Shown here one piece after another: positions 3,553-7,734 of a DNA stretch of 64,000 nucleotides. Source of the DNA: a virus (lineage: Duplodnaviria; Caudoviricetes); the IMG/VR virus record IMGVR_UViG_3300043252_000011, positions 1 to 64,000 of that record. The stretch is one strand, 5' to 3'. Below the pieces are notes generated by a model. The model saw only the letters and a program-made list of their open reading frames with translations. It was not told the origin of the DNA and ran no database searches. The stretch's first letter is position 1. Every line of letters starts with the position of its first letter. The translations under genes and the position numbers were made by a program.

Positions 3553-4533
3553 ATGCCCCACGCCCTATTCGCACCATCGTCCGCCGCGACGTGGCTAGAG
3601 TGCTCTTTCAGCGCCCGCAACAGCATACCGGAAGCGCCAAAGCCATTGAAGACGCAACTTGCAGCGGACGAAGGCACGCGCGGTCACGAATTACTAGCCG
3701 CTGCCGTTGCGGAGAATGCTTTTCCTGACGACAGCGACAGTAAAGCAGAAGCCGTTGCTTTAGGTATTAGTTTTGTACGGCAGCTGGAGCCCGGCGATAC
3801 GTACACGGAATTGACGGTAGAACTAACGCACGAATGCGGCGGTACGGCCGATCTATTCAACGACCATCCGTACATCGCCACGATCATGGATTACAAGTTC
3901 GGCAAGTGGGACGTTGACGCGTACCACAACAAGCAAATGCTGACCTATGCCGCTGCATTGCTCAACGAGTGCGATGCCGAATGGTGGCGCCTTGTGATTT
4001 TTCAGCCGAACGGCCTAGACGAAATTCCCTTTAAGCAATGGGTCGCACATCGCAGCGAAGTGATTGCGCATCGCGACCGCGTGTTGCGACAGATTGCCGA
4101 TCGGAGCGCCCCGCGCCCCGGCCCGTGGTGCCGCTGGTGCAACGCATTCCAGCAATGCCCGGCCATGTCGATTGATGCCGGTTTCGTCATGGGTGCCATG
4201 TCACGCGTCCCCGAAAGCCTGACCAGCGAGGAACTTGTACGGCTGTTGCGAATCATCCGCGCGCTTGACGACGTGAAAGCGGTTTATGATGACGCACTGA
4301 CTACAAAATTAAAGCTGGGCTACGCGACGCCGGGTGCCGTATTAAAGCCAGCGCGTGCGTTCCGTGCTTGGAATGACCAAGAGCAAGCGGCCAAAGTGCT
4401 ATACGAACAATTTGGCCCGCGTGGAATCAAGCCCGTGTCCCCAGCGCAGGCCGAAAAATTGGGGCCGGCTGGTAAGCAATATGCGGCTGTCGGAGCGCAT
4501 AAGCCCGAAGGGCAGTTGAAAGCGAGTTATTAG
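3553..4533 (+). CDS. DUF2800 / Cas4-like PD-(D/E)XK exonuclease
   Basis: HALFAPSSAATWLEC, EGTRGH, GTADL, DYKFG, QMLTYA, CRWC...C. Confidence 0.88.
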   Translation: MPHALFAPSSAATWLECSFSARNSIPEAPKPLKTQLAADEGTRGHELLAAAVAENAFPDDSDSKAEAVALGISFVRQLEPGDTYTELTVELTHECGGTADLFNDHPYIATIMDYKFGKWDVDAYHNKQMLTYAAALLNECDAEWWRLVIFQPNGLDEIPFKQWVAHRSEVIAHRDRVLRQIADRSAPRPGPWCRWCNAFQQCPAMSIDAGFVMGAMSRVPESLTSEELVRLLRIIRALDDVKAVYDDALTTKLKLGYATPGAVLKPARAFRAWNDQEQAAKVLYEQFGPRGIKPVSPAQAEKLGPAGKQYAAVGAHKPEGQLKASY

Positions 4534-4534
4534 T

Positions 4535-4897
4535 ATGATCGGCATTGAAAAACTGACCAAGTATCGGCTGTGTTATCTGGCAACGCCGTATAGCAAATTT
4601 CCCAGCGGCATCCACTGTGCGTTTGTCGAAGCGTCGATCTTCGCTGCGAGATTGCTCGCGCTTGGCGTTAAAGTTTATAGCCCGATCGCTCACACGCACC
4701 CGCTCGCAATTTACGGCAACATCGATCCGTTAAACCTCGATATTTGGTTGCCATTCGATGCTGCAATGATGGACGCTTCTGAGGCGCTACTGGTCGCCGA
4801 AATGACGGGCTGGCAAACCAGCAAGGGCATTAAACACGAAATCGACTATTTCACAGACGCCGGGAAGGATGTTCATTTTTTGCCATACCCCCTATAA
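4535..4897 (+). CDS. DUF1937 / nucleoside 2-deoxyribosyltransferase-like protein
   Basis: YLATPYS...VYSPIAHTHP...GWQTSKGIKHEI. Confidence 0.8.
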   Translation: MIGIEKLTKYRLCYLATPYSKFPSGIHCAFVEASIFAARLLALGVKVYSPIAHTHPLAIYGNIDPLNLDIWLPFDAAMMDASEALLVAEMTGWQTSKGIKHEIDYFTDAGKDVHFLPYPL

Positions 4898-4933: not shown

Positions 4934-4985
4934 CCAAATTCCCTACCGGCTGGGTTAGCCGGATTGATAAATGATAGGTGATAAA

Positions 4986-5756
4986 ATGGCTAACAGACAA
5001 TACGAAGCTGCAACAGTGTTCAATGCTCGCATTGCTGACATGCGGCATCTGTGGACGCCGAGCACAGTGTACAAAGGGCAGCCGACGCAAAAGCCTAACT
5101 ACTTCGCCATGTTCTTAGTTAAGAAAACCGTGGCGCAGTGGTTTCAGGAACCGGCACTCGCGGGCATTTCGGCGGCGTGCGGCAAGATCTACCAGAACAA
5201 CCCGCATATCCTTGTTTGGCCCGTCGTTGACGGCGACATGCCGAGCCCGGAAGGCAAATCATCTGAGTTTGCCAAAAGTCATTGGCTGTTTTCGGGATCG
5301 AGTGCCAACCCGCCGAACGTCGAAATCGTACAAGCCGGCGGTGTACTTACGAAGCTTACGAACAAAGTCGGTGTAAAATCCGGCGATTACGTCATGGCCG
5401 GCGTGACTGCGGCCGTAAAACAGAATGACCCGCGCGGCGTCAAGCTCTACCTTAACGCCGTCGTGTTTTCGTCGCCGGGCGAGGAAATCGTATTCGCCAA
5501 CTCCGTCAGCGGTGCCGAACTGATGCGTATGGCGGAACAGCAAGGCTTGCGTCCAGCGGGTTTCAGTCCTTCGCCTGGAGGCTTTACGCCGCAACAGCCC
5601 TTTGGCCAGCAACCGCAGGGTTTTACGCCGCCGGGAAGCAGCTTTGCCCCTACTCCGGGCGCCCCTGCAGCCCCGGCCTTCGCTGCCCCGGCCCTCACTG
5701 GTCCGGGTTTCGGTGGGAATGCGACATACCCTTCTAACCCCTTCGCACCGCGCTAA
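4986..5756 (+). CDS. ssb: DUF2815-type phage single-stranded DNA-binding protein
   Basis: VVDGD, SGDYV, GVKLYLNAV motifs; lies between DUF2800 and PolA; SD aggtga. Confidence 0.8.
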   Translation: MANRQYEAATVFNARIADMRHLWTPSTVYKGQPTQKPNYFAMFLVKKTVAQWFQEPALAGISAACGKIYQNNPHILVWPVVDGDMPSPEGKSSEFAKSHWLFSGSSANPPNVEIVQAGGVLTKLTNKVGVKSGDYVMAGVTAAVKQNDPRGVKLYLNAVVFSSPGEEIVFANSVSGAELMRMAEQQGLRPAGFSPSPGGFTPQQPFGQQPQGFTPPGSSFAPTPGAPAAPAFAAPALTGPGFGGNATYPSNPFAPR

Positions 5757-5769
5757 ACCGTCAGAGAGG

Positions 5770-5794
5770 GCGGGGACTTCGGTCCCCGCTTTTT
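5770..5794 (+). terminator. Rho-independent terminator-like hairpin
   Basis: GCGGGGAC-TTCG-GTCCCCGC followed by TTTTT. Confidence 0.85.
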
Positions 5795-5796
5795 CC

Positions 5797-7734
5797 ATGC
5801 CGCATCCTGACGACCTATTGGCCGATTTTGAGACGCGCAGCCGTTGCGATCTTAAAAAGGCCGGCGCGAGGCGCTATGCGGCCGATCCTTCGACCGGCAT
5901 CACGTCGGTCGTTTGGCAGTTTCGCGGCACCCGCAAACGCGCCTGCCCTGTGCATCCGCATTTAGGCACGCACGCGCTAACGGACTTGTATGTCGATGTA
6001 CGGCAATGCCGCCGGTTTGTCGCGCACCACGCAAATTTTGACGTGAGTATTCTACGCGCGGTCAATCCGTTTCTCGATCTGCCGCTGCCAAAAATCGACT
6101 GCACAATGGCGCGGGCACAATCGCTTGCACTTCCCGGCGGTCTTGACGAAGTTTGCAAGACACTCGGCATTCGGGGCAAAGACCCGCGTGGACGCGAACT
6201 TGTCATGAAGACATGCCGGCCGCAGCGTGACGGCACTTTCAACGAAGATGTACAGACATTTCGTGAGTTGCTGGAATACAATGACCGGGACGTAGATTGC
6301 CTAATCGATTTAGATAGTCGGCTGCCGCCGCTCACGCCAGACGAGCGTTTGATTTTTGAACGTACATGGCGAAAGAACGAAATCGGTTTGCCGATCGACG
6401 TACATTTGGCAACCGCCATTGCAATGCGACGGCAGGAAATTGAGCAAGAGAGTACCGCGACGCTGATGGAACTGACGCAGAACGCGGTAACGAAACTGTC
6501 ACAGCGCCAGCGCATTATCGAGTGGTGCAACAGCGGCAACCGCGCTGCCGAGTTGGAAAGCACGCAAAAACACATCGTCGCTGAAAAACTGGCCGATGAA
6601 AATTTGCACCCCGACGTACGGATTGTTTTGGAATTGCTGCAATCCGAAGGCGGCTCCGCGCCACTCAAAGCGCAAGCCCTGCTGGATCGGCACGTCGGCG
6701 GCTTTTACAAAGACGCCACTCGGTACTTCGGCGCGCGGTCAGGCCGTGGCACGTCCGAAGGTGCCAACATGTTTAACATAGCGAGACCATCGGGTAAGTA
6801 CGACGGGCAGGACGGACGGCCGACAATCGATAGCGTTATTCAGGGCCTTAAAGCCGGCTTCAAATATAACAACATTGCGCTTACCGATTGCCTTCGCAGT
6901 ACGGTCGTAGCTCCGCAAGGCTGGATGGTCTGCGACAACGACTTATCGGGCGCAGAATACCGCCTCGCAATGTGGATGGCGGGCGATACCGAGCGTCTGA
7001 ATGTGTTGGCGACCGGCGGCGATCCGTACATATACAACGCCATTGCCATGGGACGTTGCCCGCCGGGATCTACCAAAAAGACGCACCCGCATGAGCGACA
7101 GAGCTACAAATCGGTGACGCTGGGCGGCAACTACCAACTCGGTTGGAAAACATACATGGCGCACCAGCGTCGCGCCGGCAACAACGTAGACGAAATCAAA
7201 GCCCGCTCCGATATTGACGGCTACCGGCAAGCAAACCCACTTCTCGTGTCTCTTTGGTTTGCGCTCGCCGACGCGTTCAAGTTCGCGATTTATGAGCAAC
7301 CGGGCCGCATATTTCCTGCTGGCAAAGTCGCTTTTCAGAAAGATAGCCACGGCACCGTATGGATGCTGCTACCGTCCGGCCGCGCCGTACCGCACTATTC
7401 CGCGCATATCACGTACGGCGGTGAAATGGTGTTTTTCCGGGCCAAGTTCGGTGCGATGTTGCGGCGAAAAGCATTTGGTGGTTCGTTGCTCGAAATTGCC
7501 TGCCAGTCCATGACGCGGGACTTAGTAACGGCGGCTGAGGCCGACATTGAACGCGAGCTGCCCGACGTAGTGCTGATCTTGGACGTGTACGATTCAATTT
7601 TATCTCTTGCGCGTACTGACGTTGCCAGTGTACGGTCGCAACAGATGCGTGAGATTATGCGGCGCCCGCGTGCGTGGACTTCGGGGCTGCCGCTGGATTG
7701 CGAAGGCTACGAAAGTCAGAGGATGTCGCGATGA
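5797..7734 (+). CDS. DNA polymerase family A (APSE-like) with 3'-5' exonuclease domain
   Basis: Exonuclease DFET, AHHANFD, YNDRD; motif A DLSGAEYR, motif B RQSYKSVTLGGNY, motif C VYDS; start taken at ATG 5797. Confidence 0.93.
   Translation: MPHPDDLLADFETRSRCDLKKAGARRYAADPSTGITSVVWQFRGTRKRACPVHPHLGTHALTDLYVDVRQCRRFVAHHANFDVSILRAVNPFLDLPLPKIDCTMARAQSLALPGGLDEVCKTLGIRGKDPRGRELVMKTCRPQRDGTFNEDVQTFRELLEYNDRDVDCLIDLDSRLPPLTPDERLIFERTWRKNEIGLPIDVHLATAIAMRRQEIEQESTATLMELTQNAVTKLSQRQRIIEWCNSGNRAAELESTQKHIVAEKLADENLHPDVRIVLELLQSEGGSAPLKAQALLDRHVGGFYKDATRYFGARSGRGTSEGANMFNIARPSGKYDGQDGRPTIDSVIQGLKAGFKYNNIALTDCLRSTVVAPQGWMVCDNDLSGAEYRLAMWMAGDTERLNVLATGGDPYIYNAIAMGRCPPGSTKKTHPHERQSYKSVTLGGNYQLGWKTYMAHQRRAGNNVDEIKARSDIDGYRQANPLLVSLWFALADAFKFAIYEQPGRIFPAGKVAFQKDSHGTVWMLLPSGRAVPHYSAHITYGGEMVFFRAKFGAMLRRKAFGGSLLEIACQSMTRDLVTAAEADIERELPDVVLILDVYDSILSLARTDVASVRSQQMREIMRRPRAWTSGLPLDCEGYESQRMSR

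Follow-up and report, generated by a model that had tools for sequence, protein, structure and literature searches.

The window analyzed here is a stretch of 64,000 nucleotides that belongs to a virus record of 98,428 bp with terminal repeats, and it contains a phage replication module with the gene order DUF2800 nuclease, DUF1937, SSB, and PolA-like:

3553-4533: gene for a DUF2800 PD-(D/E)XK nuclease, an upstream neighbor of the SSB gene in the replication module
4535-4897: DUF1937 gene, between the DUF2800 nuclease gene and the SSB gene
4971-5756, + strand: SSB gene in the 0 frame, 261 aa, with matches to PF10991 and phrog_7011
5797-7734: PolA-like (family-A polymerase) gene, directly after the SSB gene

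The product of 4971-5756 is a phage SSB of the T7-gp2.5/Enc34 type with an OB domain of PF10991 and not of PF00436. Its residues 25-173 match Enc34_ssDNA-bd (PF10991) with 37.7 bits (cut-off 26; E 2.2e-9), and it also matches the phrog_7011 family "Gp2.5-like ssDNA binding protein" (E 2.4e-14). The gene is present as a single copy in the whole 98,428-bp record, and a search of the same record for an SSB of the PF00436 type found none. We found 270 homologs of this SSB; a tblastn search of 50,697 GenBank phage records gave no match to the gene among cultured phages and none of 185,579 species genomes yielded a homolog. The 0-frame protein consists of the OB-fold domain up to around residue 190 followed by a tail rich in Pro, Gly, Ala, and Phe. 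It shares its fold family and a flexible C-terminal interaction tail with T7 gp2.5, which ends in a critical Phe, and with ORF6 of Enc34. However, an acidic C-terminal tail is described as a hallmark of T7-type SSBs, and the tail of the Enc34 protein is in frame and strongly acidic (16 of the last 29 residues; PMC5686142), whereas the last ca. 70 residues of the in-frame tail studied here have not a single Asp or Glu and finish with NPFAPR, i.e., with a C-terminal Arg. This SSB clade is therefore odd in that its in-frame tail is devoid of the acidic character thought to be universal for T7-type SSBs.

The 3' end of the SSB gene can be read in a second frame, and the features relevant to this reading are the following:

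5558-5564, + strand: site A, in-phase heptamer G_GGT_TTC, specific to the window genome and not conserved
5618-5624, + strand: site B, in-phase slippery heptamer G_GGT_TTT and proposed -1 shift site, ca. 39 codons before the -1 stop
5624-5734, + strand: transframe (-1) coding segment, 37 codons after the putative slip, with 4 Cys and 2 Trp, ending in DIPF
5630-5677, + strand: stem-loop found by folding, candidate stimulator, 5 nt after site B
5705-5711, + strand: site C, in-phase heptamer G_GGT_TTC, 10 codons before the -1 stop
5723-5737, + strand: Asp-Ile-Pro-Phe-stop in the -1 frame, an SSB-Ct-like tip conserved in homologs
5736-5756, + strand: terminus NPFAPR-stop found only in the 0 frame, C-terminal peptide of the predicted unshifted isoform

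A first-pass annotation made from the letters of the window had described the basic arrangement correctly: the 0 frame ends with ...GFGGNATYPSNPFAPR-stop at 5756, the -1 frame reads ...GFRWECDIPF-stop (GAC ATA CCC TTC TAA at 5723-5737), and three in-phase heptamers of the type X_XXY_YYZ start at 5558 (G_GGT_TTC), 5618 (G_GGT_TTT), and 5705 (G_GGT_TTC). Each of them leads into an open -1 frame, which extends over 93 codons from the stop at 5453, and one A added after 5721 indeed gives N-D-D-I-P-F-stop. Within the transframe segment, the Cys codons lie at 5645, 5666, 5684, and 5720 and the Trp codons at 5699 and 5714. Of these three heptamers, the one at 5618 alone keeps its position in the homologs; at the position of site A, already the closest relatives L001 and L002 have GGGCTTC instead. 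As a class, in-phase heptamers are not enriched in the G/P/F-rich tail (2.3 observed versus 2.0 expected per 75 codons), and heptamer enrichment, being not significant overall, was therefore not used as evidence.

For a comparison of the 3' ends of homologs in both frames, we collected 65 homologous loci from IMG/VR and metagenomes, 49 of them distinct after duplicates and truncated genes had been dropped. In the -1 frame, Pro-Phe-stop is present in 38 of the 49 genes and preceded by Ile or Val in 36 of those 38. Under a null model that keeps the 0-frame protein and redraws synonymous codons from the OB-domain usage of the family, [I/V]PF-stop would be expected in 0.10 genes compared to the 36 of 48 distinct genes that have it, and a chance origin of the -1 tip is excluded because such shuffles produce it at a rate of only ca. 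0.002 per gene. The 0-frame terminus is equally well preserved. Of the 120 homologs listed (58-94% identity), about 110 have a C-terminus of the form [F/W]-x-[P/Q/G]-R, mostly NPF-[A/G/P]-PR, and from the -1 stop to the stop of the 0 frame the genes vary as is usual for coding in frame 0 (57% of substitutions at third positions, 54% synonymous). This terminus is therefore genuine and under selection, so that both ends, in the 0 and in the -1 frame, are real.

The first-pass annotation had also raised the possibility that a once in-frame DDIPF tail was displaced by the recent loss of 1 nt or by an error in assembly or sequencing. This reading is refuted: one inserted A near 5722 would restore N-D-D-I-P-F-stop and a homopolymer insertion in one database contig (L062/P0121) does fuse both frames, but the identical out-of-frame arrangement occurs across many samples, in 36 of 48 distinct genes, and NPF-x-PR, located 3' of the -1 stop, is itself kept in about 110 of 120 homologs and varies in the manner usual for the 0 frame. 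The frame fusion in L062 was judged to be noise because this contig is identical to L007 apart from two homopolymer insertions, the second of which breaks its OB domain. The same P0121 was the only hit when an in-frame version of the transframe tail was sought by profile among 1.84 billion representative proteins, and it was rejected as a true in-frame tail given the two insertions relative to L007.

A global nucleotide alignment of all genes gave a clean signal only for the OB domain and the segment after the stop. Since it handled the tail too poorly, we chose frame tests that are stop-anchored, peptide-threaded, or alignment-free. Independent events at the tip were counted by Fitch parsimony on a tree of the OB domain, with tips down to 43% OB-domain identity; the tip counts are conditioned on genes with PF-stop, and the Fitch counts could be too high if tails have recombined:

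-1 Ile/Val codon: ATC, ATT, ATA, GTT, GTC; overlapping 0-frame residue F, S, Y, or P
-1 Pro codon: CCC, CCA, CCG; overlapping 0-frame residue P, H, or R; 4 third-position changes, 0 at first and second positions
-1 Phe codon: TTC, TTT; overlapping 0-frame residue S or F; 9 third-position changes, 0 at first and second positions
-1 stop codon: TAA, TAG, TGA; overlapping 0-frame residue N, S, or D; 11 third-position changes, 1 at first and second positions

Each of the 24 third-position substitutions counted for Pro, Phe, and stop leaves the -1 reading unchanged and replaces the residue of the 0 frame. At the tip, CCT and TCT, which are rare as 0-frame codons (8% usage each), stay fixed while 0-frame residues change radically, and the antisense frame with coinciding wobble positions contains a stop when read from the sequence. 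PF-stop is missing in 10 of 46 tree tips, and in two of these 10 the -1 tail is still rich in Cys but has a different end. The substitution pattern at the tip fits sense coding in the -1 frame and neither a 0-frame motif nor a nucleic-acid element.

This selection on the -1 frame extends ca. 30 codons upstream of the tip. The four -1 Cys columns are kept in 34 of 37, 36 of 36, 30 of 32, and 35 of 35 genes, respectively, with both TGC and TGT in use, and TGT at a -1 Cys column changes the 0-frame residue from Ala to Val. These columns coincide with conserved, synonymous T's of the 0 frame because a -1 Cys needs a third-position T before Ala; the entropy of these T's is 0-0.34, compared to 1.2-1.9 at typical positions. 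Without any alignment, the pattern C-x5-8-C-x3-6-C-x8-16-C-x0-3-x-P-F is recovered in 26 of 38 genes versus 0.08 expected from synonymous shuffles, and the mean -1 Cys count is 4.2 versus 1.3 expected. The two Trp columns of the transframe segment are conserved as well. One exception is L008, which has a TGA at the codon for the first Cys, i.e., between the heptamer and the tip. Taken together with the substitutions at the tip, these patterns indicate with high confidence that the -1 frame is a selected coding frame. Neither a Pfam search with the transframe peptide, which gave no match, nor an ESM Atlas search, with sub-threshold matches to small Cys-rich peptides only, assigned it to a known family, and an AlphaFold2 model built with 29 homologs is of low confidence (pLDDT 56). 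With its four Cys, the Cys4/Trp-rich segment is a putative metal-binding module.

The same observations bear on the idea that the -1 frame is never translated and that the conserved pattern is instead a signal in the nucleic acid itself, be it an RNA structure or a DNA site to which a protein binds, or an unusual 0-frame motif. A 0-frame motif A-T-[F/Y/S]-P-[S/F]-[N/S] does recur around the tip in the family, and the tail region is GC-rich and folds readily. Yet variation falls on every third base and is synonymous in the -1 frame, including swaps between TAA, TAG, and TGA as well as between TGC and TGT at the Cys codons; 0-frame residues flip (P/H/R, S/F) while rare synonymous codons stay fixed, and the antisense frame that could share these wobble positions is interrupted by its stop. 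No conserved structure was found either: RNAalifold on 18 homologs gave no consensus structure and no covariation. We thus consider it very improbable that these patterns arose without translation of the -1 frame.

If the -1 frame is translated, ribosomes have to enter it, and several findings point to site B as the place of entry. Of the 35-36 genes aligned at this heptamer, 31 have its GGG and 31 its TTT, with hardly any change at any codon position, even though GGT (0.20) and TTT (0.29) are minority codons in the family. GGGTTTY is found 24-45 codons before the -1 stop in 28 genes, the distance of the site B heptamer from this stop is 37-44 codons in most genes, and 35 of 38 genes have some canonical heptamer in phase from which the -1 frame is open to the stop. 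Four genes (L007, L047, L049, and L036) have other canonical heptamers at the site B position (C_CCT_TTC, G_GGA_AAC, or C_CCA_AAC), which carries little weight given how often heptamers arise by chance in the tail. ATG, GTG, and TTG are all absent from the -1 frame in 32 of 38 genes, including the one of the window, and independent initiation is therefore excluded. Cys1-3 lie upstream of 5705 and are selected, so ribosomes would have to be in the -1 frame at least 30 codons before the stop; a heptamer at site C, 3' of these residues, cannot explain their conservation. A review of recoding (PMC5009743) counts G_GGU_UUU as one of the shiftiest heptamers and describes a shift of bacterial ribosomes on G_GUU_UUC in T7 gene 10. 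From these data, we infer that entry into the -1 frame occurs by ribosomal slippage at 5618-5624.

Other routes into the -1 frame would be a slip at 5705 or at several sites, transcriptional slippage, or non-canonical internal initiation. Transcriptional slippage is opposed by the T-run at the heptamer, which comprises just four bases and is too short for the known kinds of slippage by RNA polymerase, while internal initiation is opposed by the 32 of 38 -1 frames without ATG, GTG, or TTG. A slip at 5705 gains some support from about 13 of 38 genes that share its G_GGT_TTC at a distance of 10-12 codons from the stop, and the upstream heptamer is missing from two genes (L012 and L053), with L008 adding its stop between site B and the tip. 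Furthermore, measurements in E. coli have shown that ribosomes slip to -1 at a low level and at many positions within a low-complexity SSB linker (PMC10861913). Against these points, Cys1-3 are selected although they lie upstream of 5705, and the invariance at nucleotide level falls exactly on GGGTTT. It therefore appears unlikely that the -1 frame is reached by one of these routes instead, though site C is a possible secondary slip site next to site B.

The comparisons thus show the SSB gene to be dual-coding at its 3' end, and slippage at site B would let it yield two products. Most ribosomes would stay in the 0 frame and produce the 261-aa SSB with its non-acidic tail ending in NPFAPR, while a fraction would slip one base back on G_GGT_TTT (5618-5624), with tRNA-Gly re-pairing from GGU to GGG and tRNA-Phe from UUU to UUU. 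For the shifted ribosomes, 37 codons of the -1 frame would follow up to the TAA at 5735, resulting in an isoform of 255 aa composed of 218 residues from frame 0 and 37 residues from frame -1. This isoform would have the same DNA-binding domain and a different tail made up of the Cys4/Trp-rich segment and Asp-Ile-Pro-Phe-COOH. As a whole, we regard this reading, i.e., a -1 frameshift at 5618 that generates a 255-aa isoform with Cys4 segment and SSB-Ct-like tip beside the 261-aa form, as likely on the basis of the comparative evidence. Several results count against it: folds of the whole segment and of each sequence revealed neither a conserved stimulator nor one above background, the 60-nt fold downstream of the heptamer that contains the stem-loop at 5630-5677 has an MFE of -25.6 kcal/mol and a z of only -1.1 versus shuffles, a search near the heptamer for a conserved upstream motif or SD-like element returned none, and L008, L012, L053, and the 10 tree tips that lack PF-stop are exceptions to the pattern. 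A programmed -1 frameshift yielding two SSB isoforms had been proposed in the first-pass annotation, and this core of the proposal gains comparative support, but the conserved shift site is the one at 5618 alone and not all three heptamers. Similarly, the DIPF tip that it had singled out is under selection, but the transframe part goes beyond the tip and comprises a conserved, Cys4/Trp-rich segment of 37 codons.

The C-terminal tails of SSBs organize replication, repair, and recombination proteins on single-stranded DNA and are sensed by several anti-phage defense systems. With a tip that resembles the C-terminal peptide of bacterial SSBs as well as the end of T7 gp2.5 with its terminal Phe, the shifted isoform may dock on tip-recognizing proteins, be it host SSB partners or a phage polymerase or helicase, which the unshifted isoform could not do. 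The conserved SSB-Ct of bacteria is DDDIPF (PMC5872125), and the -1 product resembles it in ending with Ile/Val-Pro-Phe-COOH, in the window as E-C-D-I-P-F. Compared to bacterial SSBs, however, the OB domain is unrelated, being of the T7-gp2.5/Enc34 type, a Cys/Trp/Arg-rich segment instead of a Gly/Gln/Pro linker precedes the tip, the acidic run is short or missing in many homologs, and the tip would be reachable only by recoding. Asp is found at -4 from the end of the tip in 14 of 38 genes and at -5 in 10 of 38, several homologs (L009, L021, and L047) end in the full D-D-I-P-F, and one whole subgroup ends in W-V-C-[I/V]-P-F without acidic residues. Since conservation in the family does not include the acidic residues ahead of IPF, host-SSB mimicry by the tip is no more than plausible, and docking on the phage's own replisome is just as conceivable.

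Given the same frameshift, the IPF-COOH tip could instead dock on the adjacent family-A polymerase or on the phage's helicase/primase and not on host partners, with the NPF-x-PR form having another role or being a form with masked tail. All characterized T7-type SSBs use their acidic/aromatic C-terminal tail for their own replisome, as exemplified by T7 gp2.5 with a Phe-terminated tail that serves its own polymerase and helicase (PMC5686142), and SSB tails in mobile elements have been predicted to contact the neighboring PolA (bioRxiv 10.1101/2022.12.02.518924). The PolA-like gene directly after the SSB gene and the poor conservation of the acidic residues of the host tip are in line with such a function. 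Conversely, Ile/Val-Pro-Phe exactly matches the three most critical residues of the SSB-Ct (PMC5872125), L009, L021, and L047 have the complete D-D-I-P-F, and prophage DUF669 proteins related to gp2.5 with an in-frame DDDIPF have been read as mimics of host SSB (PMC13687109). We therefore see docking to the phage's own replisome as a possibility to be taken seriously, albeit a somewhat doubtful one. Returning to host partners, we tentatively propose, with doubt still slightly prevailing, that this clade of uncultured soil phages may use the frameshift to make an isoform with a zinc-binding Cys4 segment and an SSB-Ct tip, that the isoform ratio may set access to or competition for the host-SSB interactome, and that the major isoform may use NPF-x-PR.

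The proposed mechanism has a close known parallel in another replication gene, E. coli dnaX (tau/gamma), where a -1 slip on an X_XXY_YYZ heptamer gives two proteins with a common N-terminal functional domain and different C-terminal interaction parts. However, dnaX has A_AAA_AAG with an upstream SD-like element and a downstream hairpin where the SSB gene has G_GGT_TTT, and its shifted product is a truncation (one codon and then a stop), whereas the shifted SSB would gain a conserved 37-residue module with a docking tip. As proposed for the SSB gene, T7 gene 10A/10B (G_GUU_UUC) and lambda G/GT have a conserved -1 shift near the 3' end that changes or extends the C-terminus, and the T7 site is a G/U-rich heptamer used by bacterial ribosomes (PMC5009743), but these are genes for virion structure. 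With regard to the tail itself, T7 gp2.5 has its Phe-terminated tail in frame, whereas here it is found in the -1 frame and only the -1 tail has Glu and Asp near the terminal Phe. The prophage DUF669 proteins share with this SSB the combination of an SSB/annealing protein of the gp2.5 lineage and a host-SSB-like tip (PMC13687109), yet their motif is in frame and constitutive while the tip described here would be conditional on frameshifting and is coupled to the Cys4 segment.

The covered part of the recoding review (PMC5009743) lists no replication SSB among its frameshift genes, and in the literature searched, which included this part, frameshifting was not described for any phage SSB. What appears to be new here is thus the application of a programmed -1 frameshift to the interaction tail of a phage SSB, with the kind of frameshift itself being known. 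If true, one gene that swaps two conserved tails would constitute a new regulatory layer of the phage replisome, in parallel to dnaX tau/gamma but by exchanging a docking module and not by truncating the protein. It would also mean that a conserved peptide of 37 residues escapes annotation, as it has no in-frame counterpart among the 1.84 billion proteins apart from the one artefact contig.

Another feature of the locus lies between the SSB stop and the polymerase ATG at 5797:

5764-5795, + strand: strong hairpin followed by a T-run, found by folding in comparison with shuffles

This hairpin has an MFE of -25.1 kcal/mol with a z of -4.5, none of 200 shuffles being equally stable, and an equivalent of it is found in L007 and L062.

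Two of the homologous SSB loci, L017 and L052, retain the G_GGT_TTT heptamer and the four-Cys segment of the −1 frame, yet terminate it with A-I-H-G-T-stop instead of the SSB-Ct-like IPF-stop, so the Cys-rich segment could function independently of the tip. At L008, on a 49.7-kb contig shared with L026, a TGA around position 3657 takes the place of the TGC codon that encodes the first conserved cysteine (Cys1) in other genes and cuts the upstream heptamer off from an ECDIPF-stop that is itself perfectly preserved. This TGA could reflect a recent loss, an error, or a different route of entry into the −1 frame. At L056 (positions 2700–2881), two −1-frame units follow each other, the first ending in DIPF-stop and the second, which is preceded by a C_CCT_TTC heptamer, in DDVPF-stop.

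The only database protein that carries the four-Cys and IPF tail in frame is P0121, encoded at L062 on a Ga0182025 contig. This contig differs from L007 solely in two homopolymers that are each longer by 1 nt (A3 to A4 and T3 to T4); the second insertion joins the 0 frame to the tail directly upstream of Cys1. Given this otherwise complete identity, we read the fusion as probable sequencing noise rather than a genuine in-frame tail.

The 0-frame C-terminus (window 5736–5756) is conserved as NPF-x-PR-COOH in roughly 110 of the 120 homologs. While acidic tails are held to be universal among T7-type SSBs, the clade studied here differs by its non-acidic in-frame tail, which lacks acidic residues altogether (window 5541–5756). 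Contigs of relatives with an SSB of this type measure around 45 to 54 kb; the record analyzed here has a length of 98 kb (98,428 bp), with terminal repeats and a single SSB copy.

The SSB gene is followed by one further element:

5764–5795, very stable GC hairpin with T-run between the SSB stop and the ATG of the PolA-like gene (5797), z −4.5

Hairpin and T-run fill this gap and thus leave no space for a Shine-Dalgarno sequence; a comparable hairpin also occurs at L007 and L062. In T7 gene 10, frameshifting is influenced by a terminator located far downstream.

From 5602 onwards, the +1 frame continues without a stop directly into the polymerase ORF (window 5602–7734), which explains the 710-aa, TTG-started entry in the ORF list. 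In homologs, the corresponding stretch is interrupted by +1 stops, so that the open +1 frame of the window looks incidental.
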